Shown here: piece after piece, positions 1 through 15,726 of the stretch
Layout: every line of letters begins with the position of its first letter
How positions within the stretch are numbered: position 1 is the first letter of the stretch
Origin: a virus
Taxonomy: Duplodnaviria > Heunggongvirae > Uroviricota > Caudoviricetes
Direction: 5' to 3' (one strand)
Virus record (IMG/VR): IMGVR_UViG_2778261501_000004
Location: 1 to 21,272 of that record
DNA: 21,272 bases
Position numbers and translations under genes: made by a program
The notes under the pieces: generated by a model
The model's input: the letters and a program-made list of their open reading frames with translations, nothing else
Told to the model about the DNA's origin: nothing
The model's database searches: none

Positions 1-981
1 TTATAACGTCACTCCGCCTTTTAGTGGATTCAGAGCGACGGCGTTCTGCAGGTAGTCAGGCGCAAGGTGCGCATAGGTCATTGTCTGCTGAATGCTCGCA
101 TGCCCCAGAATCTGTTGCAGTGCAATTATGTTGCCCCCATTCATCATGAAATGGCTTGCGAATGTATGCCGCAGAATGTGGGTTGCCTGATTGGGAGGTA
201 TATCAGGTTTCACTCTGCGTAAAATCCCGCAAAACTTCTCATAATCTACCTTGAACAATTTGGCGCTGGCCTCCTCTTTAACTTTTTTCTCCAGTTCCTC
301 AGAAATCGGCACTGTTCGCTTTTTACCGTTTTTGGTTTTCAGGAAGGTAACCCTGCAACTTGTAATCTGTGCTGGTTTTAGCGTGGCAACTTCCGTCCAT
401 CTTCCTCCAGTGCTCAGACATAAAAGCGCGACAAGTAAGTCATCACCAGTCAAAACATTTAGCAGTTTTTCGATTTCTGCTTTTTCCAGGAACGTCATTT
501 CAGGGTTAGCCTCCGTCAGTGGCGGCAGTCCGTGAATTGGGTGTTGCCCGGAAAATTCATCCAATTGAATTAATTTTGTGAACATGCCGGATAATCGGTA
601 CATGTCGCGGTTTATCGTTGCAGCACTGATGCCATCACGTAGTCGCATGGAGCGATAATCCATCAAAGCCCTTTTGTTCATCCGGCTCACTGGTATATCA
701 CCTATGCCGCTGATGGTTTTGAGCAGATGATTAAACTCTTTTGTCCCATGCTCGTGGTTTTGCCCGTGGTATTTCCACCAGATGTCGAGCAATTCTGTCA
801 AAGTTCGGCGGTCTGCTCGCTGGCCTCCCCATTCTTTCTGACTGGCATTGGCGATTGTGTATCGCTCAAATGCTAGTGCTTCAGCTTTTCTTTCAAATTT
901 CCTGCGGATGCGTTTTCCGTCGCGACCGCGAGGTCTAATGTCCACTTCATAGCGACCATCATCGAGCTTCTTAATTGCCAT
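1..981 (-). CDS. int: Tyrosine integrase, P2 Int family (326 aa)
   Basis: Start is taken at ATG 981 (MAIKKLDDGRYEVDIRP..., the P2 Int N-terminus as I recall it), not at the ORF-track start 1011. C-terminal catalytic motifs are HILRHTFASH and LGHASIQQTMTYAHL (R/HxxR/Y). The stop TAA is at 1-3. Confidence 0.93.
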   Translation of the reverse strand: MAIKKLDDGRYEVDIRPRGRDGKRIRRKFERKAEALAFERYTIANASQKEWGGQRADRRTLTELLDIWWKYHGQNHEHGTKEFNHLLKTISGIGDIPVSRMNKRALMDYRSMRLRDGISAATINRDMYRLSGMFTKLIQLDEFSGQHPIHGLPPLTEANPEMTFLEKAEIEKLLNVLTGDDLLVALLCLSTGGRWTEVATLKPAQITSCRVTFLKTKNGKKRTVPISEELEKKVKEEASAKLFKVDYEKFCGILRRVKPDIPPNQATHILRHTFASHFMMNGGNIIALQQILGHASIQQTMTYAHLAPDYLQNAVALNPLKGGVTL

Positions 982-1050
982 AAGAAAGCCCTCCGGCGCT
1001 GTATTCACCATCTTGGTGGCAAATGGTGAAAATGTAATTTTTATATAGAG

Positions 1051-1344
1051 TTAGCCAATCCTTTTCGCGGAGTGGTCGGATTCTGTTGACTCTGGCCCAA
1101 TGTGCGCGAGAGCCGGTGCGATTTGTCCCGCTTCCGGCGCTGTTTTATCTGTCATGAGCCATAGTGTGTATTTTTGGAACTGAGGTGCATTGGTGACCTG
1201 CAACACAACTTGGATGCCAGGGTCTTGATGGCCTCCTTCGTAATTCTTTAGCGTTCCTAACGCTATACCGCTGATTTCACTGAATTTTGCTTGAGTTAGC
1301 CCTTCCGATTGTCTTATTACTCTTAATTTCTGTGCGATATTCAT
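1051..1344 (-). CDS. C: Immunity repressor, P2 C-type (97 aa, HTH)
   Basis: Start is at ATG 1344 (MNIAQKLRVIRQSEGLTQAKFSEISGIALGTLKNYEGG, an XRE-type HTH). The C-terminal half (QFQKYTLWLMT...APEAGQIAPALAH) resembles P2 C. The longer 158-aa ORF would run across the early promoter. Confidence 0.85.
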   Translation of the reverse strand: MNIAQKLRVIRQSEGLTQAKFSEISGIALGTLKNYEGGHQDPGIQVVLQVTNAPQFQKYTLWLMTDKTAPEAGQIAPALAHIGPESTESDHSAKRIG

Positions 1345-1479
1345 TTGACATAGTCCTGACTTAATGACTATATTCCCCGAAAAGGTCATTAATCCAGAAC
1401 CTTTTCGGGCGTGAGTCCAGCGCCGCTTAAACGGTTCCAAGCGGTTTTTAAGGGGCTGGATCCTATGAGGGTAACATAG
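1345..1479. promoter_or_regulatory. Lysis/lysogeny switch region (Pe rightward, Pc leftward)
   Basis: Pe candidate is TTGACA (1345-1350), an 18-nt spacer, then TATATT (1369-1374). An 8-bp inverted repeat, TTAATGAC (1361-1368) and GTCATTAA (1386-1393), brackets the -10. The position is equivalent to the P2 Pe/Pc switch. The Pc hexamers are not clearly identifiable. Confidence 0.5.
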
Positions 1480-1752
1480 ATGGAAGTTAATGATTATGTG
1501 ATTAAGTACCCGCTTGATGCGGTACATGCGGAAAAGTTTGCAGATTTATTGGGTAAACCAAAAACCGCAGTTACAGAAATGATAAAGGCTAACAAGCTAC
1601 CGGTTATCGAGCTTCGAGATCCAAATAAGCCGAAGGCCCGCGCCGGTGAGAAATGGGTTTTCATTCCAGAGTTTAATCGCGCTGTACGTGAGGCGTTTTA
1701 TAACCGACCGGTTGAACAGCGTGATGCATGGCTTTTGTGGATGGGGTTGTGA
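1480..1752 (+). CDS. cox: Cox-type excisionase / early repressor of Pc (90 aa)
   Basis: It is the first gene of the rightward early operon. The sequence (KLPVIELRDPNKPKARAGEKWVFIPEFN...RDAWLLWMGL) parallels P2 Cox (KLPVIDMTDP...GRAGEYWVYLP...RDGWLMWLGL, recalled). A GAGGG Shine-Dalgarno (SD) sequence lies upstream. Confidence 0.85.
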   Translation: MEVNDYVIKYPLDAVHAEKFADLLGKPKTAVTEMIKANKLPVIELRDPNKPKARAGEKWVFIPEFNRAVREAFYNRPVEQRDAWLLWMGL

Positions 1753-1754
1753 TT

Positions 1755-1925
1755 ATGAATGAGCCGCGTTGTATTGCTCAGTTACTGCGTAACGAAAGCC
1801 CCAGGGCGATTGACTTCACCATCACCCACGGGAAGGGACGCAAGGGAATCATTATCCGCACCAAAAAACAGAGTCCGTTAAAAAAGGCTCTGACCTTTCT
1901 GAAAAGCCGGAGGGTATGGAAATGA
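1755..1925 (+). CDS. Small hypothetical protein at the P2 orf78 position (56 aa)
   Basis: The ATG at 1755 comes immediately after the cox stop (1750-1752). The gene sits between cox and B as in P2. No recognisable motif. Confidence 0.5.
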   Translation: MNEPRCIAQLLRNESPRAIDFTITHGKGRKGIIIRTKKQSPLKKALTFLKSRRVWK

Positions 1926-2422
1926 CAGTGATGACGCTCAATCTCGTTGAAAAACAGCCAGCAACTATGCGCCGGATAATTGGTAAGCATCTGGCCGTCC
2001 CTCGCTGGCAGGAGACATGTGATTATTATAATCAGATGATGGAACGCGAACGGCTAACGGTTTGCTTTCATGCGCAGTTAAAACAGCGTCACGCAACGAT
2101 GCGTTTTGAAGAAATGAATGACGTCGAACGTGAACGGCTGGTTTGTGCAATTGATGAATTGCGTGGGGCATTCTCAAAACGCCGTCAGGTTGGCGCAAGT
2201 GAGTATGCATATATTAGTTTTTTAACAGTCAGTCAGCGTCGCACTTTATTTATGCACGCACGACTGACAGAAAAAGAATTTAACCAGCCATACTGGCGAA
2301 TTAATGAAGAATCATGTTACTGGCGTGATGCTTTATTCCGTGCGTTACGTGAATTATTCAGTCTGTTTGAGTATGCACCGACAATTCTGACGTCGGTAAA
2401 ACCAGAGCAATATCTGCATTAA
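1922..2422 (+). CDS. B: Replication protein B (helicase-loader type), 166 aa
   Basis: The sequence MTVMTLNLVEKQPA...TSVKPEQYLH matches my recollection of P2 gpB. GGAGGG (1909-1914) is better spaced for ATG 1922 than for the upstream in-frame ATG 1916. Confidence 0.85.
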   Translation: MTVMTLNLVEKQPATMRRIIGKHLAVPRWQETCDYYNQMMERERLTVCFHAQLKQRHATMRFEEMNDVERERLVCAIDELRGAFSKRRQVGASEYAYISFLTVSQRRTLFMHARLTEKEFNQPYWRINEESCYWRDALFRALRELFSLFEYAPTILTSVKPEQYLH

Positions 2423-2486
2423 ATAATTAACCAGAGTTTTTAACGCACTTAATCGTGCGGGGGCTTCTTTTTGCCTGGAGAAAGTC

Positions 2487-2711
2487 ATGCATACAGTTTC
2501 TGAAAACAAGTGCGGTAAATACGCATTACTGCTGCAACAGGCCAGAGCCGAAGCACAGGCCGACGCAGCGACACGCTTTTCTTCTCATCTTGACGCCATG
2601 ATTCGCCATATCACAAAGGCGGAGTTATCCCGCGTGGAGATAGTCGAGCTGCTCAGTCAGGAGTCGGAAAAATTTCACAATATCGGATTGTCTCGCGGGG
2701 AGGTGCTTTGA
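2487..2711 (+). CDS. Hypothetical early protein (P2 orf80 position, 74 aa)
   Basis: SD GGAGAAAG lies upstream. The stop overlaps the next start (ATGA-type coupling at 2708-2711). Assigned by synteny. Confidence 0.6.
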
Positions 2712-3010
2712 TGTCCTGTTCTAATTCAGTTGTATTACTGAATAACGCCTTAAAAATCGCCGTTATGAAAAATGGCGATTTATCTCTTATTCAACTTTGC
2801 CTTGATAAAGAAAAACGCGACATAACTGAATCTGTTATCGCGATTTATCAGAATGAATTAAACCTCCTGTCTGATGTGGTCAATTTACTTGTTAAACGCG
2901 CTGTATTCCACAAGCAAATTTCCTCAGTGGATGAACTGACAAAATTAACGACAGAACTTGCCAGTTATTGCGCTGATGTATCCAGGAAACTTAACGATAA
3001 AAGGAGCTGA
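2708..3010 (+). CDS. Hypothetical early protein (P2 orf81 position, 100 aa)
   Basis: Coupled to its neighbours and assigned by synteny. No motif recognised. Confidence 0.6.
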
Positions 3011-3012
3011 TA

Positions 3013-3237
3013 ATGCCGGACAACGTAGATTTTATTCAGGAACAACAGACTGAATTACTGGAGCGTCAGATTAACGCGGCAAGGGTAAAGCATTGCGGTG
3101 TTTCTGCGCTGGTTTGCGAAGAGTGTGACGCGCCAATACCTGCTGCCCGTCGTGCGGCTTATCCGTCAGCCACGCGTTGTGTTTCCTGCCAGTCAGTCTT
3201 TGAAGCAAAAAACAAACATTACCGGAGAACGGCATGA
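3013..3237 (+). CDS. TraR/DksA-type C4 zinc-finger protein (P2 orf82 position, 74 aa)
   Basis: CEECDAPIPAARR...TRCVSCQ gives a CxxC-N17-CxxC pattern typical of the TraR/DksA family. SD AAGGAG lies upstream. Confidence 0.75.
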   Translation: MPDNVDFIQEQQTELLERQINAARVKHCGVSALVCEECDAPIPAARRAAYPSATRCVSCQSVFEAKNKHYRRTA

Positions 3238-3509
3238 GTATTCGTATTGAAATTGGCGAACGTTATGTCGTTACCAGTGACAGCTTTCAGTTTATTCTCC
3301 ACGAGAAAAAGAGAGCGGAAAGCGGTAAAAACGCCGGTCAGGAATGGCTGTCGGTGGTTGGTTATTATCCGAAATTAAGCCAGCTCGTTTCCGGCCTGAT
3401 GCATCACGATATTCTGACCGGAAGCGCAAAGTCTTTTGCTGATTTAAACGCGCAGGTTGAGCAACTCAGCAGGCGTTGTTCAGAGGCTTTTGGCTCATAT
3501 GGCCGTTAA
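3234..3509 (+). CDS. Hypothetical early protein (P2 orf83 position, 91 aa)
   Basis: ATGA overlap with the preceding gene. The 3' end overlaps the start of A. Assigned by synteny. Confidence 0.6.
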   Translation: MSIRIEIGERYVVTSDSFQFILHEKKRAESGKNAGQEWLSVVGYYPKLSQLVSGLMHHDILTGSAKSFADLNAQVEQLSRRCSEAFGSYGR

Positions 3510-5784
3510 AGCCTCCGGGCGTTTTGTCCCTCCGTCAGCATTTGCCGCAGGCACCGGTAAGGCGTTTACCGGTGCTTATGCATGGAACGCGCCACGCGAG
3601 GCTGTCGGGCGCGAAAGACCCCTTACACGTGACGAGATGCGTCAGGTGCAAGGTGTTTTATCCACGATTAACCGCCTGCCTTACTTTTTGCGCTCGCTGT
3701 TTACTTCACGCTATGACTACATCCGGCGCAATAAAAGCCCGGTGCACGGGTTTTATTTCCTCACATCCACTTTTCAGCGTCGTTTATGGCCGCGCATTGA
3801 GCGTGTGAATCAGCGCCATGAAATGAACACCGACGCGTCGTTGCTGTTTCTGGCAGAGCGCGACCAGTATGCGCGCCTGCCGGGGATGAATGACAAGGAG
3901 CTGAAAAAGTTTGCTGCCCGTATCTCATCGCAGCTTTTCATGATGTATGAGGAACTCTGCGATGCCTGGGTTGATGCACATGGCGAAAAAGAATCGCTGT
4001 TTACGGATGAGGCGCAGGCTCACCTCTATGGTCATGTTGCTGGCGCTGCGCGTGCTTTCAATATTTCCCCGCTTTACTGGAAAAAATACCGTAAAGGGCA
4101 GATGACCACGAGGCAGGCATATTCTGCCATTGCCCGCCTGTTTAACGATGAGTGGTGGACTCATCAGCTTAAAGGCCAGCGTATGCGCTGGCATGAGGCG
4201 TTACTGATTGCTGTCGGGGAGGTCAATAAAGACCGTTCTCCTTATGCCAGTAAACATGCCATTCGTGATGTGCGTGCGCGCCGCCAGGCAAATCTGGAAT
4301 TTCTTAAATCGTGTGACCTTGAAAACAAGGAAACCGGCGAGCGCATCGACCTTATCAGTAAGGTGATGGGCAGTATTTCTAATCCTGAAATTCGCCGGAT
4401 GGAGCTGATGAACACCATTGCCGGTATTGAGCGTTACGCCGCCGCAGAGGGTGATGTGGGGATGTTTATCACGCTGACCGCGCCGTCAAAGTATCACCCG
4501 ACACGTCAGGTCAGAAAAGGCGAAAGTAAAACCGTTCAGCTTAATCACGGCTGGAACGATGAGGCATTTAATCCAAAGGATGCGCAGCGTTATCTCTGCC
4601 GCATCTGGAGCCTGATGCGCACGGCATTCAAGGATAATGATTTACAGGTCTACGGTTTGCGTGTCGTCGAGCCACACCACGACGGAACGCCGCACTGGCA
4701 TATGATGCTTTTTTGTAATCCACGCCAGCGTAACCAGATTATCGAAATCATGCGTCGCTACGCGCTCAAAGAGGATGGAGACGAAAGAGGAGCTGCGCGA
4801 AACCGTTTTCAGGCAAAACACCTTAACCGGGGCGGTGCTGCGGGATATATCGCGAAATACATTTCAAAAAACATCGACGGCTATGCACTGGATGGTCAGC
4901 TCGATAACGACACCGGCAGGCCGCTGAAAGACACTGCAGCGGCTGTTACCGCATGGGCGTCAACGTGGCGCATCCCGCAATTTAAAACGGTTGGCCTGCC
5001 GACAATGGGGGCTTACCGTGAACTACGCAAATTGCCGCGCGGCGTCAGCATTGCTGATGAGTTTGACGAGCGCGTCGAGGCTGCACGCGCCGCCGCAGAC
5101 AGTGGTGATTTTGCGTTGTATATCAGCGCGCAGGGTGGGGCAAATGTCCCGCGCGATTGTCAGACTGTCAGGGTTGCCCGTAGCCCGTCGGATGACGTTA
5201 ACGAGTACGAGGAAGAAGTCGAGAGAGTGGTCGGCATTTACGCGCCGCATCTCGGCGCGCGTCATATTCATATCACCAGAACGACGGACTGGCGCATTGT
5301 TCCGAAAGTGCCGGTCGTTGAGCCTTTGACTTTAAAAAGCGGCATCGCCGCGCCTCGGAGTCCTGTCAATAACTGTGGAAAGCTTACCGGCGGTGATACT
5401 TCGTTACCGGCTCCCACACCTTCTGAGCACGTCGCAGCAGTGCTTAATCTGGTTGATGACGGTGTTATCGAATGGAATGACCCGGAGGTCGTGAGGGCGC
5501 TCAGGAGCGCATTAAAATACGGCCTGAGAACCTCAAACCGTCAGCAAAGAAACGGAAGCCCGTTAAAACCGCATGAAATTGCACCATCGGCCAGACTGAC
5601 CCGGTCGGAAAGAATGCAAATTACCCGTATCCGCGTTGACCTTGCTCATAACGGTATCAGGCCGCAGCGATGGGAGCTTGAGGCGCTGGCGCGTGGCGCG
5701 ACCGTAAATTATGACGGGAAAAAATTCACTTATCCGGTCGCTGATGAGTGGCCGGGATTCTCAACAGTAATGGAGTGGAAATGA
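3499..5784 (+). CDS. A: Rolling-circle replication initiator gpA (761 aa, HUH endonuclease)
   Basis: Start is at ATG 3499 (MAVKASGRFVPP...), giving the 761 aa of P2 gpA. The HUH motif is PHWHMMLF and the two-tyrosine motif is YIAKYISK. The upstream 14 codons of the ORF-track call overlap orf83. Confidence 0.95.
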   Translation: MAVKASGRFVPPSAFAAGTGKAFTGAYAWNAPREAVGRERPLTRDEMRQVQGVLSTINRLPYFLRSLFTSRYDYIRRNKSPVHGFYFLTSTFQRRLWPRIERVNQRHEMNTDASLLFLAERDQYARLPGMNDKELKKFAARISSQLFMMYEELCDAWVDAHGEKESLFTDEAQAHLYGHVAGAARAFNISPLYWKKYRKGQMTTRQAYSAIARLFNDEWWTHQLKGQRMRWHEALLIAVGEVNKDRSPYASKHAIRDVRARRQANLEFLKSCDLENKETGERIDLISKVMGSISNPEIRRMELMNTIAGIERYAAAEGDVGMFITLTAPSKYHPTRQVRKGESKTVQLNHGWNDEAFNPKDAQRYLCRIWSLMRTAFKDNDLQVYGLRVVEPHHDGTPHWHMMLFCNPRQRNQIIEIMRRYALKEDGDERGAARNRFQAKHLNRGGAAGYIAKYISKNIDGYALDGQLDNDTGRPLKDTAAAVTAWASTWRIPQFKTVGLPTMGAYRELRKLPRGVSIADEFDERVEAARAAADSGDFALYISAQGGANVPRDCQTVRVARSPSDDVNEYEEEVERVVGIYAPHLGARHIHITRTTDWRIVPKVPVVEPLTLKSGIAAPRSPVNNCGKLTGGDTSLPAPTPSEHVAAVLNLVDDGVIEWNDPEVVRALRSALKYGLRTSNRQQRNGSPLKPHEIAPSARLTRSERMQITRIRVDLAHNGIRPQRWELEALARGATVNYDGKKFTYPVADEWPGFSTVMEWK

Positions 5785-6227
5785 TGGCAAAAATTCACGA
5801 GGTAAAGCTGCACGCCAAATATTTTGACCTTGTGCTGGAAGGAAAGAAACGCGCAGAGTTTCGGAAAAATGACCGTAATTATGAGCGCGGGGACACGTTG
5901 ATTTTGCATGAATGGGTACAGGGTGTGTATACGGGGCGAAAGGTTGAAGCCCGGATAACAGATGTTACTGACCTGTCAGACTGGCTGGAAGATTATGTCT
6001 TGCTAAGTATTGAGCGGCTTAATACAGGCGCATATGAGATTGTGAACTGGAAAGAACTTAGTGAGCGTGGTCTGGTATTCAGAATTAATCATGAAATTAT
6101 GCATCAGCTCGGCCTTGCTGTTATGTATGAGCCGGAGACGGGGCTGTCTGGCGGGGCAGTGGTTACTGCGGATGGGATATGGAACTATTCAGATGAACAG
6201 GTGGAGCGTACAAAGCAAAACGGGTGA
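5781..6227 (+). CDS. ASCH/DUF3850-like protein with a C-terminal extension (about 148 aa)
   Basis: The N-terminus HEVKLHAKYFDLVLEGKKRAEFRKNDRNYERGDTLILHEW fits the ASCH-like DUF3850 pattern as I recall it. The start (5781 or 5784) overlaps the A stop (5782-5784). This is the P2 orf91 position. Confidence 0.6.
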   Translation: MMAKIHEVKLHAKYFDLVLEGKKRAEFRKNDRNYERGDTLILHEWVQGVYTGRKVEARITDVTDLSDWLEDYVLLSIERLNTGAYEIVNWKELSERGLVFRINHEIMHQLGLAVMYEPETGLSGGAVVTADGIWNYSDEQVERTKQNG

Positions 6228-6442
6228 CTTGGATAATGCACAGAATACCAGGCGAGATACCGCACCATAAAACTAAAAATATCAAGCTGATGGCTATTGT
6301 TCAGCGTTTACAGCGGATTATGGTCAACGAAAATCTGACGCCCGATGAGCTGGTCGGGTGTGCCGAAATAGTCCGGGATAATTACGGGCGGTTTAACCAT
6401 ATCGGTCAATCAAGAGTTACGCCACCACCACGCAGACGATAG
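6224..6442 (+). CDS. Small hypothetical protein (72 aa from GTG 6224, or 68 aa from ATG 6236)
   Basis: GTGA overlap with the preceding stop. No motif recognised. It is the last ORF before the AT-rich island. Confidence 0.35.
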   Translation: MTWIMHRIPGEIPHHKTKNIKLMAIVQRLQRIMVNENLTPDELVGCAEIVRDNYGRFNHIGQSRVTPPPRRR

Positions 6443-6663
6443 AGAACGCCGCCAGTCGTGAAACTTGTTTTCAGGGCTGGCGGGGTTGAACAACGAGCGA
6501 AGCGAGGCGTTAGCTAGGCTTTCTATATTGTTTACAATTAAACCTATCCAGAATTAATTGGAATTCAATTTGATCTTTTTCTCGCTACATATGGCCACAA
6601 GTACCAAAACGTGAGAACATCAAAGCTAGGCGAAATCTAGCTTTTCCATAGGAGTTGTTTCGT

Positions 6664-6690
6664 TATAATACGCGGTCGGTTTTTAGGAGG
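6664..6690 (+). promoter_or_regulatory. Candidate -10 element and ribosome-binding site of the methyltransferase gene
   Basis: TATAAT at 6664-6669. AGGAGG at 6685-6690, 5 nt before ATG 6696. No convincing -35 hexamer. Confidence 0.4.
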
Positions 6691-6695
6691 GGTCA

Positions 6696-7634
6696 ATGCC
6701 AACTGTAGTGTCGCTTTTTTCCGGGTGTGGTGGTTCTGATGCAGGAGTCTTGAAGGCTGGGTTTGATGTTCTAATGGCGAATGACATTTTACCTTACGCT
6801 CGTGATGTGTATTTGGCTAACCATCCAGAAACTGATTATGTTTTGGGTGATGTCTCCACTATTGAATCGTTTCCATCTGCTGAACTGCTGGTTGGTTGCT
6901 ATCCCTGTCAAGGTTTTAGCCAAGGTGGAGTTCGAAAAGCTGATAGAAAAATTAATACGCTATACTTAGAGTTTGCAAGAGCTTTAAGAATAGTTAAGCC
7001 AAAAGCGTTCATTGTTGAAAACGTTTCTGGCATGTTGCGAAGTAACTTTGAACATTTGTTGAAAGATCAGTTCAAGGTTTTCGAAGAGGCTGGTTACAGA
7101 GTTAAATCTAAAATTCTAAATGCTTCTCATTTTGGTGTTGCTCAGGATCGTAAGCGCATTTTTATTGTTGGCATACATGAGAGATTTGGAGTTGATTTTT
7201 CGTTTCCAGTCGCGACTCATGGCGAAGGATTGAAAAGAGTGACTACTATCCGTGATGCGATAGGTTCGTTACCGGAATGGCCTGTTGGAGAGTTTTATGA
7301 TGCCGATTTCCATTGGTATTATTTATCAAGAAATCGCCGTCAGGACTGGGATCAAATCTCAAAAACCATAGTTGCTAATCCAAGGCATATGCCTTTACAT
7401 CCAATTAGTCCAACTCTTATAAAGTTAGGTCCAGATAAATGGCAATTTACATCAAATGAACGTGCACGGCGTTTTAGTTTTCGTGAGGCTGCTTATCTTC
7501 AAGGATTTAGTAATTTAGTTTTTCCTGAAACAGAGCGAGCATCCATGAATATGAAATATACAGTTGTCGGAAACGCCGTACCGCCCCCTTTATTCGAAGC
7601 GGTAGCGCGTTCATTACCTGATATTTGGGATTAA
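6696..7634 (+). CDS. DNA (cytosine-5)-methyltransferase, 312 aa, complete motif set
   Basis: Motif I LFSGCGG, motif IV PCQGFS (PCQ encoded at 6903-6911), motif VI ENV, motif VIII QDRKRIF, motif IX RRFSFREAAYLQGF, motif X GNAVPP. A short variable region of about 100 aa lies between motifs VIII and IX. Confidence 0.92.
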   Translation: MPTVVSLFSGCGGSDAGVLKAGFDVLMANDILPYARDVYLANHPETDYVLGDVSTIESFPSAELLVGCYPCQGFSQGGVRKADRKINTLYLEFARALRIVKPKAFIVENVSGMLRSNFEHLLKDQFKVFEEAGYRVKSKILNASHFGVAQDRKRIFIVGIHERFGVDFSFPVATHGEGLKRVTTIRDAIGSLPEWPVGEFYDADFHWYYLSRNRRQDWDQISKTIVANPRHMPLHPISPTLIKLGPDKWQFTSNERARRFSFREAAYLQGFSNLVFPETERASMNMKYTVVGNAVPPPLFEAVARSLPDIWD

Positions 7635-8560
7635 CTCAACACATAATCCATAGCCACTAAGTCATCAACAAACGTTAGATTGTCTTGGTGGTTTATCTGT
7701 GGATATTTTTTAGTCAGATTTACTAGTCTAAGTCTATCAACAAATATTGCAGCACCAAAATCACTCCTGTGAGCCCAGTCGCGGTTATGCCATCTTAAAT
7801 CTTGTGGAAGAAAATAATATGTTGACCATGGATGTAAGACAGGAAGCAAATTCCACAATTTAGCCGGTGTGGCCTCAAGTTGTTTTGCTACCCATTCAGT
7901 TTTTGAACATCCACATTGAGCAAGAGCAAGAGGTATAGACTCACGATTATCTCCCATATCATGCCAAGCGAGTATATCAATTCCTCCATCTCCCCTGTCA
8001 TTTGGTTTGAAATCTTCAATTGAAAAATTAGCTTTACATCTGAAATCTTGTGCTATTTTAGTTAACTTATCAAAGAGTAAGCCAGTGTAGTGACCTGAAT
8101 TACCTGCGCTAGCCCAACAGTGTTTAACTGTTGCTCCTTCAGGCATGAGGGCTTGAAATATGGGATAGCTTATTTTCTCAAATGCACTTGTAAATATGTC
8201 ACGGTGACTATTTTCTATATATTTTATATTTGCACAGGCTAAGAGTGCTATGTATAGTTTTTCATTTTGATTGTAATCAGCAATATTATGCTTTCTTAAG
8301 AATAATGTGTCTCTGTCATCAGAAAAATAAAAGGGGTAATCATCACCGAAAAGGCTAATTCTTGTGTCAATGAATGTCGCTGCAAAATTCCATTTATCGT
8401 CAGAATACCCGCGTGACTTTGGATTTGCTTGAGACCTAAAGAGGCTTGCTAGATCTCCTCTACTAAAGCATTTGTCTGTATTTACTGTAGCCCATAACTC
8501 TAAATAGTCGCCCCATAAATATGGCTCGTTATCGGGTAATGAGTCCATGTGAAAAATCAT
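7631..8560 (-). CDS. Hypothetical protein with an Mrr-like / PD-(D/E)xK-like motif; putative nuclease (309 aa)
   Basis: RGDGGIDILAW...LALAQCGCSK (codons 189-220, nt 7901-7996) resembles the Mrr-cat signature GDGGID...QxK, but with extra residues in the Q..K element. SD GAGGAAG lies upstream. The start overlaps the upstream stop (TAATG). The function is an inference. Confidence 0.6.
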   Translation of the reverse strand: MIFHMDSLPDNEPYLWGDYLELWATVNTDKCFSRGDLASLFRSQANPKSRGYSDDKWNFAATFIDTRISLFGDDYPFYFSDDRDTLFLRKHNIADYNQNEKLYIALLACANIKYIENSHRDIFTSAFEKISYPIFQALMPEGATVKHCWASAGNSGHYTGLLFDKLTKIAQDFRCKANFSIEDFKPNDRGDGGIDILAWHDMGDNRESIPLALAQCGCSKTEWVAKQLEATPAKLWNLLPVLHPWSTYYFLPQDLRWHNRDWAHRSDFGAAIFVDRLRLVNLTKKYPQINHQDNLTFVDDLVAMDYVLS

Positions 8561-9639
8561 TATTCATCTTCCTCACGGATGCTTTCAATTTGTTTTTTAA
8601 TTTTACGCGCTATAGATAATATTTCACTCGAACGATATTCGTGATTTTCTGTGAAAGAGTGCGTGTTGAGAAGCATATCCCAAACAACTCTTAGTCGAGA
8701 TTCTGCTTGGTCTAGAGCTTGATCCAAAGCCTCTTCATGACCATTTGTATATAAATAGGCTTCTTCAATGTTTTTAGACTTTATGAGGTTATCTATTGCT
8801 GCTTCATTGGCAACTATTGTTGAAAGATTTTTGATCTTGCGACTTTCACCAATGATAGTATCACCCTGTTGATCTCTAACAAAGAACCAAGCAAAAAGCT
8901 TCTCAAGGTTTTCCTCTTTCAGGTTTTTAGCAGATAAATCTTTTCTATCATCTAAGCCTAACCAGTCTGTAATGTTAGTATATCCAAGAGCTGTTGTTAT
9001 GTAGGAAAAATCGACATCATTCTCACTCATATGCAAATTATAGAAGTTTTTATCAGCAGCGGTTTCATATAATTTGAGTGAAGTTAATAAAAGGCCGACG
9101 TAATAAGATTTACTGCCAATTTCTTTAGCTAATGACTTTAAAAGAGATTCTTTGTCTGCACCTTTGTAGAAAGTTTCACTAAGCTCCTTAAGATACTTAG
9201 CTTTAGAAAGTGCATCCCATTCTTTCACACCAGTAATGTGTCTATATCCGATATAACGTAACACATCTTCACGTCTTGTGTAGACGAGACAAGGTAATTT
9301 AGTCGGTTTATAAGTAGCATCGTCCTGAATTAGTTGAATGCTTTTTTCTTTTCTTTTAGGTGGTAAAAGTTCGCTATTGAGCAACTTTACGGCAGCAAGG
9401 CGACGGTTACCCTCAACTACAACATATTTTTTCCCGGAACTAACCACTAAAAGAGGTTCTCCGGGAAAGTAATCTTGTTCCCCTATGGACAGCATCAAAT
9501 CTTGTACACTTTCGTCATCAAGCATTTCTTCAATGACGGCATTTTCAGATCCAGCCCTATCGTTTAACCGATAGAAACGTGGGTTTTCAGGATCAAACTC
9601 TAGATCTTCCGTGTTTATGTATTTGATTTCGTTGCTCAT
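8560..9639 (-). CDS. ParB/Srx N-terminal-domain protein (359 aa)
   Basis: LEFDPENPRF plus VVVEGNRRLAAVKLL (GNRR encoded at 9400-9411) matches the ParB-N / sulfiredoxin-fold signature. The remaining ~240 aa are helical-looking with no motif I recognise. There is no obvious SD before ATG 9639. Confidence 0.8.
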   Translation of the reverse strand: MSNEIKYINTEDLEFDPENPRFYRLNDRAGSENAVIEEMLDDESVQDLMLSIGEQDYFPGEPLLVVSSGKKYVVVEGNRRLAAVKLLNSELLPPKRKEKSIQLIQDDATYKPTKLPCLVYTRREDVLRYIGYRHITGVKEWDALSKAKYLKELSETFYKGADKESLLKSLAKEIGSKSYYVGLLLTSLKLYETAADKNFYNLHMSENDVDFSYITTALGYTNITDWLGLDDRKDLSAKNLKEENLEKLFAWFFVRDQQGDTIIGESRKIKNLSTIVANEAAIDNLIKSKNIEEAYLYTNGHEEALDQALDQAESRLRVVWDMLLNTHSFTENHEYRSSEILSIARKIKKQIESIREEDE

Positions 9640-9830
9640 AATTGTATTCTGCGCAGATATAAGGATGACTTGCTACAGCATAACCTTATGTTTAGCATCT
9701 GTCATTATGATGGCTGCCTTATGCATGATTTTGCATCCATTTTTTATTTTATTTTTTTGGGGGCGCATTAGGCCCGATATGGTTTTTGGAGACGATGCGT
9801 TTGCATCAAAACAGCCCCATGAAGCGGGCG

Positions 9831-9849
9831 GGCGAGGCGGGGAAAGCAC
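9831..9849. other. cos cohesive-end sequence (P2 19-nt 5' overhang)
   Basis: GGCGAGGCGGGGAAAGCAC is identical to the P2 cohesive end as I recall it. It sits downstream of Q, exactly as in P2. Confidence 0.8.
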
Positions 9850-9990
9850 TGCGCGCTGGCAGTAGTGCTGATTTTATTTTTTCAGCGTCTGAGCGCGTCG
9901 TGATGGCGTTTAGATTGTGTGCCGGGGCGTTGGTTTGTCTGCGGGCTATTTTGCGCGGAGGTGAGCGTGTGAGGGCGTGATGGCGGGGTG

Positions 9991-10013
9991 TAAAAAAGCC
10001 GCCCGCAGGCGGC
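9991..10013 (-). terminator. Rho-independent terminator downstream of Q
   Basis: Stem GCCGCC (9998-10003) and GGCGGC (10008-10013) with loop CGCA. On the minus strand this is followed by a T6 run (A-run 9992-9997 on the plus strand). Confidence 0.65.
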
Positions 10014-10018
10014 GATGT

Positions 10019-11053
10019 TCAGCCGTTGTCAGTGTCCAGTGAGTAGTTTTTAAAGCGGATGACCTCCTGACCGAGCCAGCCGTTTATCTCGCGGATCCTG
10101 TCCTGTAACGGGATAAGCTCATTGCGGACAAAGACCTTTGCCACTTTCTCAATATCACCCAGCGACCCGACGTTCTCCGGCTTGCCGCCCATCAACTGAA
10201 AGGGGATGCGGTGCGCGTCCAGCAGGTCAGCGGCGCTGGCTTTTTTGATATTAAAAAAATCGTCCTTCGTTGCCACTTCACTGAGCGGGATAATTTTTAT
10301 GCCGTCGGCTTTCCCCTGTGGGGCATAGAGAAACAGATTTTTAAAGTTATTGCGGCCTTTCGACTTAACCATGTTTTCGCGAAGCATTTCGATATCGTTG
10401 CGATCCTGCACGGCATCGGTGACGTACATGATGTATCCGGCATGTGCGCCATTTTCGTAATACTTGCGGCGGAACAGCGTGGCCGACTCATTCAGCCAGG
10501 CAGAATTAAGGGCGCTCAGATATTCCGGCAGGCCGTACAACTCCTGATTGATATCCGGCTCCAGCAGGTGAAACACGGAGCCGGGCGTGAAGGCTGTCGG
10601 CTCGTTGAAGGACGGCACCCACCAGTAAACATCCTCCTCCACGCCACGGCGGGTATATTTTGCCGGTGAGGTTTCCAGTCTGATGACCTTACCGGTGGTG
10701 CTGTAACGCTTTTCCAGAAACGCATTACCGAACACCAGAAAATCCAGCACAAAGCGGCTGAAATCCTGCTGGGAAAGCCACGGATGCGGGATAAATGTCG
10801 AGGCCAGAATATTACGTTTGACGTAAATCGGTGAGCTGTGATGCACGGCAGCACGCAGGCTTTTTGCCAGACCGGTAAAGCTGACCGGTGGCTCATACCA
10901 TCTGCCGTTACTGATGCACTCGACGTAATCCAGAATGTCACGGCGGTCGAGTACCGGCACCGGCTCACCAAAGGTGAATGCCTCCATTTTCGGGGCGCTG
11001 GCGGTCATTGTTTTCACCGCTGGCTGCGGTGTTTTCCCTTTTTTCTTGCTCAT
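10019..11053 (-). CDS. Q: Portal protein gpQ (344 aa)
   Basis: Length and position match P2 Q. ATGA overlap with the P stop at 11053. Confidence 0.93.
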   Translation of the reverse strand: MSKKKGKTPQPAVKTMTASAPKMEAFTFGEPVPVLDRRDILDYVECISNGRWYEPPVSFTGLAKSLRAAVHHSSPIYVKRNILASTFIPHPWLSQQDFSRFVLDFLVFGNAFLEKRYSTTGKVIRLETSPAKYTRRGVEEDVYWWVPSFNEPTAFTPGSVFHLLEPDINQELYGLPEYLSALNSAWLNESATLFRRKYYENGAHAGYIMYVTDAVQDRNDIEMLRENMVKSKGRNNFKNLFLYAPQGKADGIKIIPLSEVATKDDFFNIKKASAADLLDAHRIPFQLMGGKPENVGSLGDIEKVAKVFVRNELIPLQDRIREINGWLGQEVIRFKNYSLDTDNG

Positions 11054-12825
11054 CAGTAAAACTCCAGAATGGTGGATGTCAGCGGGGTGCTGATACCGGC
11101 GGTGAGTGGCTCATTTAACAGGGCGTGCATGGTCGCCCAGGCGAGGTCGGCGTGGCTGGCTTCCTCGCTGCGGCTGGCCTCATAGGTGGCGCTGCGTCCG
11201 CTGCTGGTCATGGTCTTGCGGATAGCCATAAACGAGCTGGTGATGTCGGTGGCGCTGACGTCATATTCCAGACAGCCACGGCGGATGACGTCTTTTGCCT
11301 TGAGCACCATTGCGGTTTTCATTTCTGGTGTGTAGCGGATATCGCGCGCGGCGGGATAGAACGAGCGCACGAGCTGGAACACGCCGACACCGAGGCCGGT
11401 GGCATCAATACCGATGTATTCGACGTTATATTTTTCGGTGAGTTTGCGGATGGATTCCGCCTGGGTGGCAAAGTCCATGCCTTTCCACTGGTGACGCTCA
11501 AGTATTCTGAATTTGCCACCGGCCACCACCGGCGGTGCCAGCACCACACATCCGGCACTGTCGCCACGGTGTGACGGGTCGTAACCAATCCATACCGGAC
11601 GGGAGCCGAACGGATTCGCGGCAAACGGCGCATAGTCTTCCCATTCTTCCAGCGTGTCGACCATGCAGCGTTGCAGCTCCTCGAACGGGAACACCGACGC
11701 CTTGTCGTCAACAAATTCACACATGAACAGGTTTTTAAAATCGTCGGCGCTGTTTTCGCGTTTGAGCTGCTCAATGTCGAACAGCGTGCAGCCACCTTTC
11801 AGGGCGTCCTCAATGGTGACAATCTGTCGCCACTGGCCGTCCGCACAGAGAAGCCCACCGGCAAGGGCGTTATGACTGACGTCGATTTCCACGCGTTCGG
11901 CGGCGCTGGCGCGTCCCCGGTTATACAGTTCACCCGACCAGAACGGGTAGGCGTCGTGCGCCAGCGTGGACGGGGTGGAGAAATAGGTCGAACGCAGGTG
12001 ACTCTGTGAGGCCATACCTGATGCCACCTTACGCAGTACCTGAAAATTCGGGATCCAGAAAATCTCGTCGACGTACAGGTCGCCGTTATGGCTCTGCGCG
12101 GTGTTGGAGTTGGTGCCGAGAAAAATCAGTTTTGCGCCGTTATTGCCCAGGACAATCGGGTCACCGGTCAGGTCAACGTCAACCAGACGGGCAAAGGCGA
12201 TGATGTATTCGCGGAACACATACGCCTGCGTTTTACTGGCCGACAGAAAAATCTGGTTATGACCGGTTTTCAGGGCGCGCAGCAGCGCCTCGCGGGAAAA
12301 ATAAAATGTCGCGCCAATCTGGCGGGATTTCAGGATATCGCGGATGCGGTGCTCAAGCCCGGCGCGATACCAGTGCAACTGATAGTCGAAAGACTGCTCA
12401 AAGAAAATCTGCTCCAGCTTTTCGATGGCCTCGTCACTGAAAAAATTCTTTTTCGGTTTGCGCCGCCCGCCTTTGTTGCGGTTAGCGACGTTCGGATTAA
12501 GGTCTGCCTCGTTGCCGGTCTGGCTGTAGCGATTTACCCGTGCCAGTCGTTCAATCTGGCGTCCCAGCAGGTCAATTTCCTTGAAGTCACCGCCGGTTTT
12601 CTGCGGTTTGATGATGAGCTGGGTCAGCCGCGCTTCCAGGCTCATTTCGACACGGCTGATGGGGGCAACGCTGTCCCAGCCGTCGCGCTGTTTCCAGCTC
12701 TGCACCGTCGGGCGTTTCATCTGCAACATGGCGGCAATCTGCGGCACGGAAAACCCCTGCCAGTACAGCAGCGCCGCCTGACGACGCGGGTCGTGTAAAA
12801 GAGTGGTGTCTGTGGTGATGGTCAT
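11053..12825 (-). CDS. P: Terminase large (ATPase) subunit gpP (590 aa)
   Basis: Start is at ATG 12825 (MTITTDTTLLHDPRRQ...), giving the P2 length of 590 aa. Terminase Walker-A-like LKSRQIGAT. The ORF-track start 12876 adds 17 unsupported codons. Confidence 0.93.
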   Translation of the reverse strand: MTITTDTTLLHDPRRQAALLYWQGFSVPQIAAMLQMKRPTVQSWKQRDGWDSVAPISRVEMSLEARLTQLIIKPQKTGGDFKEIDLLGRQIERLARVNRYSQTGNEADLNPNVANRNKGGRRKPKKNFFSDEAIEKLEQIFFEQSFDYQLHWYRAGLEHRIRDILKSRQIGATFYFSREALLRALKTGHNQIFLSASKTQAYVFREYIIAFARLVDVDLTGDPIVLGNNGAKLIFLGTNSNTAQSHNGDLYVDEIFWIPNFQVLRKVASGMASQSHLRSTYFSTPSTLAHDAYPFWSGELYNRGRASAAERVEIDVSHNALAGGLLCADGQWRQIVTIEDALKGGCTLFDIEQLKRENSADDFKNLFMCEFVDDKASVFPFEELQRCMVDTLEEWEDYAPFAANPFGSRPVWIGYDPSHRGDSAGCVVLAPPVVAGGKFRILERHQWKGMDFATQAESIRKLTEKYNVEYIGIDATGLGVGVFQLVRSFYPAARDIRYTPEMKTAMVLKAKDVIRRGCLEYDVSATDITSSFMAIRKTMTSSGRSATYEASRSEEASHADLAWATMHALLNEPLTAGISTPLTSTILEFY

Positions 12826-12998
12826 GAATACCTCGCCGTGATGAATACACGGCAAGGCTACTGAGTCGCGTCCCACGATTCGCTAAGGTGCTGTTGTGTC
12901 AGTGATAAGCCATCCGGGACTGATGGCGGAGGATGCGCATCGTCGGGAAACTGATGCCGACATGTGACTCCTCTAATCACTATTCAGGACTCCTGACA
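12826..12998. promoter_or_regulatory. Divergent late promoter region (P2 PP / PO equivalent, Ogr-dependent)
   Basis: Intergenic region between the divergent P and O genes, as in P2. I could not find an exact TGT-N12-ACA activator box by eye, so no hexamers are called. Confidence 0.45.
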
Positions 12999-13853
12999 AT
13001 GGCAAAAAAAGTCTCAAAATTCTTTCGTATCGGCGTTGAGGGTGACACCTGTGACGGGCGTGTCATCAGTGCGCAGGATATTCAGGAAATGGCCGAAACC
13101 TTTGACCCGCGTGTCTATGGTTGCCGTATTAACCTGGAACATCTGCGCGGCATCCTGCCTGACGGTATTTTTAAGCGTTATGGCGATGTGGCCGAACTGA
13201 AGGCCGAAAAGATTGACGATGATTCGGCGCTGAAAGGCAAATGGGCGCTGTTTGCGAAAATCACCCCGACCGATGACCTTATCGCGATGAACAAGGCCGC
13301 GCAGAAGGTTTATACCTCAATGGAAATTCAGCCGAACTTTGCCAACACCGGCAAATGTTATCTGGTGGGACTGGCCGTCACCGATGACCCGGCAAGCCTC
13401 GGTACGGAATACCTGGAATTCTGCCGCACGGCAAAACACAACCCCCTGAACCGCTTCAAATTAAGCCCTGAAAACCTGATTTCAGTGGCAACGCCCGTTG
13501 AGCTGGAATTTGAAGACCTGCCTGAAACCGTGTTCACCGCCCTGACCGAAAAGGTGAAATCCATTTTTGGCCGCAAACAGGCCAGCGATGACGCCCGTCT
13601 GAATGACGTGCATGAAGCGGTGACCGCTGTCGCTGAGCATGTGCAGGAAAAGCTGAGTGCCACTGAGCAGCGCCTCGCTGAGATGGAAACCGCCTTTTCC
13701 GCACTTAAGCAGGAGGTGACTGACAGGGCGGATGAAACCAGCCAGGCATTCACCCGCCTGAAAAACAGTCTCGACCACACCGAAAGTCTGACCCAGCAGC
13801 GCCGCAGCAAGGCCACCGGCGGTGGCGGTGACGCCCTGATGACGAACTGCTGA
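12999..13853 (+). CDS. O: Capsid scaffold/protease gpO (284 aa)
   Basis: Start is at ATG 12999 (MAKKVSKFFRIGVEGDTCDGR...), giving the P2 length of 284 aa. The C-terminal half is coiled-coil-like. Confidence 0.9.
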   Translation: MAKKVSKFFRIGVEGDTCDGRVISAQDIQEMAETFDPRVYGCRINLEHLRGILPDGIFKRYGDVAELKAEKIDDDSALKGKWALFAKITPTDDLIAMNKAAQKVYTSMEIQPNFANTGKCYLVGLAVTDDPASLGTEYLEFCRTAKHNPLNRFKLSPENLISVATPVELEFEDLPETVFTALTEKVKSIFGRKQASDDARLNDVHEAVTAVAEHVQEKLSATEQRLAEMETAFSALKQEVTDRADETSQAFTRLKNSLDHTESLTQQRRSKATGGGGDALMTNC

Positions 13854-13911
13854 CCGGCGTCAGTCAGTCCGGGAAAACCTTCACGATTAACCCTTAATTT
13901 CAGGAAAAACT

Positions 13912-14985
13912 ATGCGCCAGGAAACCCGCTTTAAATTTAATGCCTACCTGTCCCGTGTTGCCGAACTGAACGGCATCGCCGCCGGTGATGTGTCGAAAAA
14001 ATTCACCGTTGAACCGTCGGTCACCCAGACCCTGATGAACACCATGCAGGAGTCCTCTGATTTTCTGACCCGCATCAACATTGTGCCGGTCAACGAAATG
14101 AAAGGGGAAAAAATTGGTATCGGTGTCACCGGCTCCATCGCCAGCACCACCGACACCGCCGGTGGCACCGAGCGTCAGCCGAAGGACTTCTCGAAGCTGG
14201 CGTCTAACAAGTACGAATGCGACCAGATTAACTTCGATTTTTATATCCGCTACAAAACGCTTGACCTGTGGGCGCGTTATCAGGATTTCCAGCTCCGTAT
14301 CCGTAACGCCATTATCAAACGCCAGTCCCTTGATTTCATTATGGCCGGTTTTAACGGCGTGAAGCGTGCAGAAACCTCTGACCGCAGCAGCCATCCGATG
14401 CTGCAGGATGTGGCGGTCGGCTGGCTGCAGAAATACCGCAATGAAGCCCCGGCGCGTGTGATGAGTAAGGTCACTGACGAGGAAGGCCGCACCACCTCTG
14501 AGGTTATCCGCGTGGGTAAGGGCGGTGATTATGCCAGCCTTGATGCACTGGTGATGGATGCGACCAACAACCTGATTGAGCCGTGGTATCAGGAAGACCC
14601 TGACCTTGTGGTGATTGTGGGGCGTCAGTTACTGGCGGACAAGTATTTCCCCATCGTTAACAAGGAGCAGGACAACAGCGAAATGCTGGCCGCTGACGTC
14701 ATCATCAGCCAGAAACGCATCGGTAACCTGCCAGCGGTACGCGTCCCGTACTTCCCGGCGGATGCGATGCTCATCACGAAGCTGGAAAACCTGTCCATCT
14801 ACTACATGGATGACAGCCATCGCCGCGTGATTGAGGAAAACCCGAAACTCGACCGCGTGGAGAACTACGAGTCAATGAACATTGATTACGTGGTGGAAGA
14901 CTACGCCGCCGGTTGTCTGGTGGAAAAAATTAAGGTCGGTGATTTCTCCACACCGGCTAAAGCGACCGCAGAGCCGGGAGCGTAA
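13912..14985 (+). CDS. N: Major capsid protein gpN (357 aa)
   Basis: Length and position are as P2 N. SD AGGAAAAA lies upstream. Confidence 0.93.
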   Translation: MRQETRFKFNAYLSRVAELNGIAAGDVSKKFTVEPSVTQTLMNTMQESSDFLTRINIVPVNEMKGEKIGIGVTGSIASTTDTAGGTERQPKDFSKLASNKYECDQINFDFYIRYKTLDLWARYQDFQLRIRNAIIKRQSLDFIMAGFNGVKRAETSDRSSHPMLQDVAVGWLQKYRNEAPARVMSKVTDEEGRTTSEVIRVGKGGDYASLDALVMDATNNLIEPWYQEDPDLVVIVGRQLLADKYFPIVNKEQDNSEMLAADVIISQKRIGNLPAVRVPYFPADAMLITKLENLSIYYMDDSHRRVIEENPKLDRVENYESMNIDYVVEDYAAGCLVEKIKVGDFSTPAKATAEPGA

Positions 14986-14988
14986 CCG

Positions 14989-15726
14989 ATGACGAGTCCC
15001 GCACAGCGCCACATGATGCGGGTCTCGGCAGCGATGACCGCGCAGCGGGAAGCCGCCCCGCTGCGACATGCAACTGTCTATGAGCAGATGCTGGTTAAGC
15101 TCGCCGCAGACCAGCGCACACTGAAAGCGATTTATTCAAAAGAGCTGAAGGCCGCGAAAAAACGCGAACTGCTGCCGTTCTGGTTGCCGTGGGTGAACGG
15201 CGTGCTGGAGCAGGGCAAAGGTGCACAGGATGACATTCTGATGACGGTCATGCTGTGGCGTCTGGATACCGGCGATATTGCCGGTGCGCTGGAGATTGCC
15301 CGTTATGCCCTGAAGTACGGTCTGACCATGCCGGGTAAACACCGCCGTACCCCGCCGTACATGTTCACCGAGGAGGTAGCGCTTGCGGCCATGCGCGCTC
15401 ATGCTGCCGGTGAGCCTGTGGACCCCCGCCTGCTGACGGACACCCTTGAACTGACCGCCACGGCTGATATGCCTGATGAAGTGCGCGCAAAGCTGCACAA
15501 AATCACCGGTCTGTTTCTGCGTGACGCTGGTGATGCCGCAGGGGCGCTGGCGCATCTGCAACGTGCGACACAGCTCGACTGTCAGGCAGGCGTAAAAAAA
15601 GAGATTGAACGACTGGAGCGGGAGCTGAAACCGAAGCCGGAGCCAAAAGCGGTCACCCGCGCCCCGCGTAAGATCCGGAGTGCGACACCGGCAAAACGTG
15701 GACGCCCGAAAAAGAAAGCCAGTTAA
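14989..15726 (+). CDS. M: Terminase small/endonuclease subunit gpM (245 aa)
   Basis: Follows N by 3 nt. Basic C-terminal tail (PAKRGRPKKKAS). This is the P2 M position. Confidence 0.88.
   Translation: MTSPAQRHMMRVSAAMTAQREAAPLRHATVYEQMLVKLAADQRTLKAIYSKELKAAKKRELLPFWLPWVNGVLEQGKGAQDDILMTVMLWRLDTGDIAGALEIARYALKYGLTMPGKHRRTPPYMFTEEVALAAMRAHAAGEPVDPRLLTDTLELTATADMPDEVRAKLHKITGLFLRDAGDAAGALAHLQRATQLDCQAGVKKEIERLERELKPKPEPKAVTRAPRKIRSATPAKRGRPKKKAS

Follow-up and report, generated by a model that had tools for sequence, protein, structure and literature searches.

We looked at a 21,272-nucleotide stretch of viral DNA (IMG/VR record IMGVR_UViG_2778261501_000004, positions 1 to 21,272; hereafter the window), which is a P2-like prophage of Escherichia coli, and more precisely at an AT-rich insert that carries three genes. 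Two of them lie one behind the other on the minus strand and encode a ParB-like protein of 359 amino acids (aa) and a 309-aa protein with a predicted nuclease fold; the third, convergent with them, encodes a C5 DNA cytosine methyltransferase (Table 1). An earlier reading of this DNA, made from its letters and open reading frames (ORFs) alone (the sequence-only reading), had taken the first two proteins for a two-component effector. This proposal gave way to a three-gene cassette, since the C5 methyltransferase gene accompanied the pair in every locus examined. Because of this linkage the functional reading becomes restriction-modification (R-M)-like, and on balance the cassette probably serves in defence as an R-M-like system whose restriction component has two subunits.

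Table 1. Features of the three-gene cassette and its borders in the window (residues and codons are numbered within the protein named)
Feature	Position	Strand	Remark
AT-rich insert with three genes	6650..9750	.	33-45% GC versus 50-59% in the P2 backbone
C5 DNA cytosine methyltransferase gene, M.HaeIII-like, 312 aa	6696..7634	+	convergent with the nuclease gene
TTAA palindrome, overlapping stops of nuclease (-) and methylase (+)	7631..7634	.	4-nt convergent overlap in 11 related loci
Nuclease-fold gene, 309 aa	7631..8560	-	predicted winged-helix-like N-terminal and PD-(D/E)xK (Mrr/MspJI-like) C-terminal domains
QCGCSKTEWVAK, codons 215-226 of the nuclease	7883..7918	-	family consensus FAQC[GA]C..W..KQ.E
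GDGGID, codons 190-195 of the nuclease	7976..7993	-	D195 falls on MspJI catalytic D334 (weak HMMER alignment to 4f0p)
TAATG junction	8558..8562	-	ParB-like stop TAA 8562-8560, nuclease ATG 8560-8558, base 8560 common
GAGGAAG Shine-Dalgarno sequence	8568..8574	-	in the last ParB-like codons, 7 nt before the nuclease ATG
ParB-like gene, 359 aa	8560..9639	-	ORF listing, translation
ParB-N/Srx NTP-binding-type domain	residues ~1-140 of the ParB-like protein		
ParB-type helix-turn-helix DNA-binding domain	residues ~143-255 of the ParB-like protein		
C-terminal long helical hairpin	residues 301-358 of the ParB-like protein		
GNRR, ParB box II/GxxR phosphate-binding motif, codons 77-80	9400..9411	-	inside EGNRRLAA, residues 76-83
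FDPENPR, ParB box-I-like motif, codons 15-21	9577..9597	-	homologue alignment
Sigma-70-like promoter candidate ATGACA-17-TATGCT, weak	9677..9705	-	consensus match; match count equals the shuffled expectation
gpQ terminator-like hairpin	10013-9998	-	ParB-like promoter candidate lies downstream

Three routes led to related loci: the exact proteins were looked up, genomes were scanned with each species represented once, and annotated records of phages and of E. coli were used. The ParB-like gene stood before the nuclease gene, with a C5 methylase gene alongside, in 35 of the 35 loci that contained the pair. These loci span beta- and gammaproteobacterial chromosomal sites (among them Methylotenera, Methylomonas, Sulfuricella and Gallionella) and several Peduoviridae, including Wφ (mth-orf96-orf98), Pseudomonas phage vB_PaeM-D14A and vB_EcoM-12474III; orf96 of Wφ shows 52% identity to the family. 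The triad was kept even in three metagenomic contigs in which nuclease identity was just 26-29% and the C5 methylase gene was co-directional, and there the upstream gene encodes a full-length ParB-like homologue (hhalign 100%, 34-37% identity). Since the linkage persisted through this change of gene order, it is strong evidence that the three genes function together. In four Burkholderiales-type loci, a gene for a 1,041-aa Eco57I-like N6 methylase was convergent on the nuclease gene, with the C5 methylase gene behind it; judging from this gene content, the pair can evidently combine with other methylases. The four loci come from Variovorax (L023), Hydrogenophaga (L026), the metagenome-assembled genome 'Rhizobium sp. 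Q54' (L027) and Pelomonas (L028), and the C5 methylase behind the N6-adenine methylase has 364 aa in them, as in L026 (6942-11191). In locus L040 (2249-5755), a vsr mismatch-repair gene directly follows the co-directional C5 methylase gene. Both L040 and L041 (3087-6621), metagenome contigs, have a second C5 methylase gene downstream, encoding 653 aa.

The ParB-like and nuclease genes are tightly joined. The one-base TAATG overlap, the GAGGAAG Shine-Dalgarno sequence and the motifs quoted by the sequence-only reading were all found in place in the ORF listing and its translation, the minus strand at the junction running ...CGT GAG GAA GAT GAA TAA TG ATT. The first ATG as nuclease start was backed by homologue alignments. 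When the distance from the ParB-like stop to the nuclease start was measured in 27 related loci, it ranged from -1 to +6 nt with two exceptions, for which the script had picked an upstream in-frame start; in three distant loci the gaps were 3-6 nt. In related loci a GGAGG-like Shine-Dalgarno sequence was usually encoded by conserved L-E-D/E codons at the C-terminus of the ParB-like gene. The overlap is more than chance, and the translational coupling that had been proposed for the pair is borne out by these tight junctions, kept across related loci.

Pairwise distances were then compared among 33 non-redundant loci. Those of the ParB-like protein and of the nuclease were correlated with r = 0.96, a value that is no proof of physical contact since adjacent genes are expected to correlate, while the methylase distances were correlated with those of the ParB-like protein and the nuclease with r = 0.36 and 0.43; the methylase was the least divergent of the three proteins. 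Two E. coli P2-borne variants have methylases that are 85% identical, together with nucleases and ParB-like proteins that are 26% and 30% identical. In the 12474III variant, it looks as if the whole restriction module had been exchanged against a conserved methylase gene. Fast-evolving, co-inherited restriction genes next to a conserved and exchangeable modification gene are the usual picture in R-M systems. Read from protein distances, this divergence pattern fits a two-subunit restriction component, and the way in which the ParB-like protein co-diverges with the nuclease would fit a complex of the two. This second E. coli variant (L002, phage vB_EcoM-12474III, 4237-7273) was also seen in E. 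coli O145 strains.

We searched the ParB-like protein against several profile collections. In Pfam, ParB_N alone was matched, below threshold (E 0.0045), and in NCBIfam parB_part was matched at 3.9e-6. In PADLOC, 25 PD-Lambda-5_A profiles matched residues 1-153 with E down to 1e-24; they represent the A protein of PD-λ-5 ('ParB/HEPN, methyltransferase'), a validated anti-phage system (Vassallo et al. 2022, PMC9519451). The PADLOC candidate PDC-M38A covered residues 42-348, and a literature search on PDC-M38 and on Wφ orf96 returned nothing relevant. The predicted structure resembles KorB, PadC, Spo0J and the SopB DNA-binding domain. Profile matches and structure prediction thus both uphold the ParB-N/Srx fold that had been assigned to this protein, and the '~240 aa unassigned helical' sequence that had been placed behind it is largely a ParB-type helix-turn-helix domain and a helical hairpin by structure prediction; according to this model, the 359-aa protein is ParB-like along its entire length. 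The search reported 2,602 homologues, and conservation was read from 34 that were aligned. The segments FDPxNPRF, EGNRRLAA and RY(I/L)GYRHITG(V/I)KEWD were invariant or nearly so. Within them, F15, D16, P17, N19, P20 and R21 did not vary in 35 homologues, nor did E76, G77, N78, R79 and R80, the counterpart of GERRFRA in Spo0J/ParB, nor the segment GYRHITGVKEW. The FDPENPR motif was retained in distant homologues (34-37% identity) and in bona fide PD-λ-5_A. The weak promoter candidate lies upstream of the ParB-like gene, beyond the gpQ terminator.

The 309-aa protein matched nothing in Pfam, NCBIfam or PADLOC, and no Pfam Mrr_cat match was seen at E <= 1. A search of PDB chains with the single sequence returned MspJI alone (E 1.3), and the same search with the family profile returned nothing at E <= 10. 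The AlphaFold2 model was confident (predicted local distance difference test 89.9, predicted template modelling score 0.90), and the structure search that the sequence-only reading had proposed for this protein found a nuclease fold, with MspJI as the top Foldseek match (E 2.5e-4, probability 1.0). As the sequence searches of the PDB were near-empty, the PD-(D/E)xK assignment rests on the predicted structure, which supports an Mrr/MspJI-like nuclease fold. The N-terminal 185 aa, which had been left unassigned, contain a winged-helix-like domain in this predicted structure.

A profile search of 1.84 billion representatives gave a nuclease family of 1,458 clusters (50% identity) at E <= 1e-3. 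In this family, down to 24% identity, D191, G193, D195, D204, Q215 and D275-R276-x-R278 are invariant, and E128, C216, C218, W223 and K226 reach 90% conservation or more in the broad alignment. The segment RGDGGIDILAW starts at R189 and AQCGCSK corresponds to residues 214-220; in the weak HMMER alignment, Q215 falls on MspJI Q355 and the lysine of QxK on G217. Conserved D and Q residues together with G or A at the lysine position indicate an active site that is under selection yet non-canonical. The catalytic residues suggested earlier (D191, D195 and K220) were therefore confirmed in part: both aspartates are invariant, whereas position 220 varies among K, Q, R and T and the conserved lysine is K226. 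Lying in the next helix, K226 is a candidate replacement for the catalytic lysine, as judged from conservation. Another conserved motif, W-(A/G)-D-(Y/F)-x-E-L, was observed in an N-terminal helix (residues 16-21, 8498-8515), far in sequence from the nuclease core; its D18 and E21 are invariant to 24% identity and could serve as an interface with a partner or as another acidic site.

The methyltransferase matched Pfam DNA_methylase (PF00145) at 2.9e-60 and aligned end to end with M.HaeIII, target-recognition region included (3e-46). The motifs FSGCGG, PCQ, ENV, QDRKR and GNAVP (motifs I, IV, VI, VIII and X) are all present, and it is a complete C5 enzyme. Its best PADLOC matches were DruM and MTase_II.

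The insert is flanked by gpA and the DUF3850 gene (orf91) on one side and by cos and gpQ on the other. The 3.6 kb around the cassette (6400-10000) show 99.2% identity with strain PSS-08-2, whose annotation runs gpA, DUF3850/orf91, cassette, portal Q, terminase. The 19-mer GGCGAGGCGGGGAAAGCAC of the P2 cohesive end (cos) has an exact match at 9831-9849 (+), none being expected by chance; this match puts the cassette between cos and gpA, with the ParB-like start ~190 bp from cos. The cos-proximal gpA-gpQ position is a defence hotspot of P2 (Rousset et al. 2022, PMC9122126), and the three genes are best explained as a compact, horizontally acquired cassette in this hotspot of a P2-like prophage. 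The cassette allele of the window was present in one of 5,426 complete E. coli genomes, and a relative at ~66% DNA identity in 104 of them. At the same hotspot, Yersinia phage L-413C (L032, 207-1199) has only a 330-aa ParB-like remnant; in Yersinia phage HQ103 (L034, 227-3352), ParB-like and nuclease genes are annotated and an unannotated stretch matches the C5 methylase by tblastn.

Further observations concern the prophage itself. A DUF3850/ASCH-like gene, the P2 orf91 homologue, lies at 5748-6227 (+), immediately before the hotspot; a 2025 survey (PMC12704722) reports an enrichment of ParB-CTPase-DUF3850 fusions in prophages. At the position of the immunity repressor, the window has a 158-aa ORF (1051-1527, -) and PSS-08-2 is annotated with a 97-aa helix-turn-helix protein, so that the immunity regions of these otherwise near-identical prophages may differ. 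In the P2 backbone (1-6649 and 9751-21272), GATC is far rarer than expected, with 15 sites observed versus 73 under a 3-mer Markov model; it is undepleted in the cassette (10 observed versus 13 expected). The moderate depletion of GGCC in the backbone (61 observed versus 101 expected) was considered as a clue to specificity and left unused, as without a host-genome baseline this count is not evidence.

If the cassette is the R-M-like system that we favour, the C5 methyltransferase would mark host and prophage DNA as self, at a HaeIII-like site and thus possibly at GGCC or a related sequence. The ParB-like protein and the nuclease, translationally coupled, would together form the restriction component. 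In such a complex, the ParB/KorB-type protein would bind DNA, its N-domain probably binding a nucleoside triphosphate (NTP) and acting as a switch or clamp on DNA, and the 309-aa protein would be the DNase that cuts DNA lacking the methyl mark, presumably that of phages. We infer, in line with the sequence-only reading, that the ParB-like protein may license the nuclease. A more specific version, in which the ParB-like subunit is an NTP-gated clamp (possibly gated by cytidine triphosphate, CTP) that loads at unmethylated sites, slides, and delivers or activates the PD-(D/E)xK subunit, seems to us rather unlikely.

Several points weigh against this R-M-like interpretation. Position 217 is always G or A across the nuclease family, meaning that the canonical catalytic lysine is missing and that nuclease activity is not assured. 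No ParB-nuclease fusion was seen among the best 150 of the 1,458 family representatives, all of which are stand-alone proteins, most having 300-380 aa and a few being shorter fragments; there is thus no Rosetta-stone support for a ParB-nuclease complex from these 150. In our manual alignment to Spo0J, box III (ENLQR) is presumably replaced by GYRHITG, and this replacement leaves NTP binding by the ParB-like protein, and the identity of the nucleotide, as a prediction. The ParB fold binds CTP, adenosine triphosphate or guanosine triphosphate, with a specificity that is unpredictable from sequence or AlphaFold3 (2025 survey, PMC12704722). Protection by the related PD-λ-5 is strongest against the T-even phages with their hypermodified DNA (PMC9519451), which plain cutting of unmethylated sites does not predict. 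Finally, by structure the nuclease domain stands closest to MspJI, AspBHI and Mrr-type enzymes, which are modification-dependent and so of the opposite polarity.

Another reading is a modification-dependent (Type IV, Mrr/MspJI-like) complex of the pair acting on foreign modified DNA, with a methylase that is functionally separate and serves, for example, in prophage self-protection or anti-restriction, or sets a mark ignored by the nuclease. We consider this improbable: the methylase accompanies the pair in all loci, its gene stands in either of two orders and its stop codon often overlaps that of the nuclease, which is hard to explain if it is unrelated, a modification-dependent nuclease beside an active methylase would risk self-cleavage, and the QxK lysine of Mrr/MspJI is gone along with any Pfam match to Mrr_cat. 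To much the same degree we doubt that the nuclease is a conventional Type II-like enzyme and the ParB-like protein a mere transcriptional controller or timer, analogous to a C protein or the KorB repressor. In 26 loci, the sequence before the ParB-like gene had no common 8-mer except A/T runs, and neither a conserved operator-like palindrome nor a parS-like motif was found there; conserved coupling, the 359-aa size and the close co-divergence better suit a stoichiometric partner, and PD-λ-5 carries this ParB-N module in one chain with its effector domain.

A third possibility is abortive infection of a toxin-antitoxin kind, the ParB-like protein restraining a nuclease toxin until infection and methylation being secondary. 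The description of PD-λ-5 as a compacted prophage system joining R-M and abortive infection (Vassallo et al. 2022, PMC9519451) and the order of the two coupled genes, in which the putative inhibitor precedes the nuclease, speak for it. Yet the scans of Pfam, PADLOC and NCBIfam revealed no likeness to known toxin-antitoxin families, and such a module has no need of universal methylase linkage or of R-M-like evolution, so that we find this very unlikely. Hardly any credence is left for a role of the ParB-like protein in partition or maintenance of the P2-like element with unrelated cargo as neighbours, which its full architecture of N-domain, helix-turn-helix domain and C-terminal helices might suggest. 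We rejected it because no ParA-like gene (nor ParM partner) lies in the cassette, no ParA-like gene adjoins it, and the pair is strictly linked to nuclease and methylase functions; the same triad also occurs at chromosomal, non-prophage sites, and what Rousset et al. 2022 (PMC9122126) noted in P2 hotspots as a partition-like system is StbA/Plasmid_stab_B, which differs from the cassette.

A prophage-borne R-M-like defence built on a ParB-N module in a P2 hotspot is of a kind already known. As judged from its genes, the cassette joins a complete ParB-like protein to a C5 methylase and to a PD-(D/E)xK nuclease that is separate and non-canonical, and this architecture appears to be neither described nor tested in the literature searched. 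ParB-fold proteins are known as CTP-gated clamps in DNA segregation and gene silencing, and many 'orphan' versions on mobile elements have, to our knowledge, no assigned role. With three genes in ~3 kb of E. coli DNA, the cassette offers a tractable test of whether a ParB nucleotide switch was recruited for discrimination between self and non-self DNA. If the clamp version of the R-M-like reading were true, the cassette would represent a new and widespread class of restriction enzymes that depend on a nucleotide and use the ParB CTPase fold, with a mechanistic parallel to Type I/III/ISP enzymes or McrBC, and its enzyme, if active, could be a new kind of restriction reagent. Pfam, NCBIfam and PADLOC contain no model for the nuclease family, so that current defence-finding tools would overlook the cassette or take it for an incomplete PD-λ-5; its group is the second most frequent in E. 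coli P2 hotspots in the grouping of Rousset et al.

We compared the cassette with known systems. Like MspJI/Mrr-type enzymes, the nuclease has the D and Q residues, but Gly or Ala takes the place of the QxK lysine, and its N-terminal domain is predicted to be winged-helix-like, not SRA-like as in those enzymes. They are also stand-alone, without a cognate methylase, whereas the cassette nuclease is always methylase-linked. With ParB, KorB and PadC, the ParB-like protein shares the N-domain fold, the box I-like and box II (GxxR) motifs, the ParB-type helix-turn-helix domain and the C-terminal helices. It differs from them in its box III and in having no ParA partner and no recognisable parS, its partners being a nuclease and a methylase. 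GmrSD, BrxU and SspE follow the logic proposed for the cassette, a ParB-superfamily nucleotide-dependent sensor that controls a DNase in a restriction context, but in them a DUF262 (DGQHR) ParB-like NTPase is fused to an HNH/DUF1524 nuclease, an arrangement that the cassette does not have. Identity with Menshen (NsnA ParB-DUF262) was rejected, as there was no PADLOC Menshen match and the architecture is different. Closer are the classical Type II R-M systems with a C5 methylase (HaeIII, and EcoT38I of P2 prophages): they share adjacent modification and restriction genes, a HaeIII-like methylase, the PD-(D/E)xK fold, carriage in the P2 hotspot, restriction genes that diverge faster than the modification gene and, in one relative, vsr beside the latter. 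The difference is that the restriction side of the cassette always includes a second, ~360-aa ParB-like protein and that its active site is non-canonical: of the Type II D...(D/E/Q)xK, D195 and Q215 are present and the lysine position is G217.

The cassette also has a place in an existing catalogue. Table S5A of Rousset et al. 2022 (PMC9122126) contains rows 'DNA_methylase + hypothetical + ParBc', and 'System #2' of Table S5B, at the same hotspot, accounts for 1,136/18,150 loci and is labelled 'RM-like system'. Its representative protein 2 has 65% identity to the ParB-like protein of the window and its protein 1 is a 12474III-type homologue of the nuclease. This entry lumps HEPN, D12-methylase and C5-methylase variants, PD-λ-5 too, and gives neither the nuclease fold nor the ParB architecture. 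System #2 is outside the three newly validated P2-hotspot systems of that study, in which we found no report of its validation.

PD-λ-5, which was cloned in a strain deleted for the mrr-containing region (Vassallo et al. 2022, PMC9519451), is likewise prophage-borne and methylase-containing, and its A protein begins with the same ParB-N subfamily (DPxNPR, EGNRR, RH..W). By hhalign, residues 5-150 of the ParB-like protein aligned with bona fide PD-λ-5_A of phage AS1_27 (98.5% probability, E 3.6e-15). The match is not full-length, residues 1-153 covering profile positions 1-160 of 430-510. In true PD-λ-5 loci, such as genes 27/26 of Marinobacter phage AS1, most of the A protein matches the profile, or the protein is divided between two genes, as in Vibrio phage ValB1MD-2; the methylase gene is co-directional. 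There, ParB-N is fused to a HEPN-like C-terminal half, whereas in the cassette it is followed by a ParB-type helix-turn-helix domain, and the effector, which shows no relation to that half, is a PD-(D/E)xK protein with a gene of its own. PD-λ-5_B belongs to the Dam-like N6 methylases of the D12 class, in contrast with the convergent C5 enzyme of the cassette; BLASTP between the cassette methylase and true PD-Lambda-5_B found only a 58-residue stretch at the S-adenosylmethionine-binding motif (E 0.036). With the ParB-N module in common, and a different effector and class of methylase, the cassette is a sister design to PD-λ-5.

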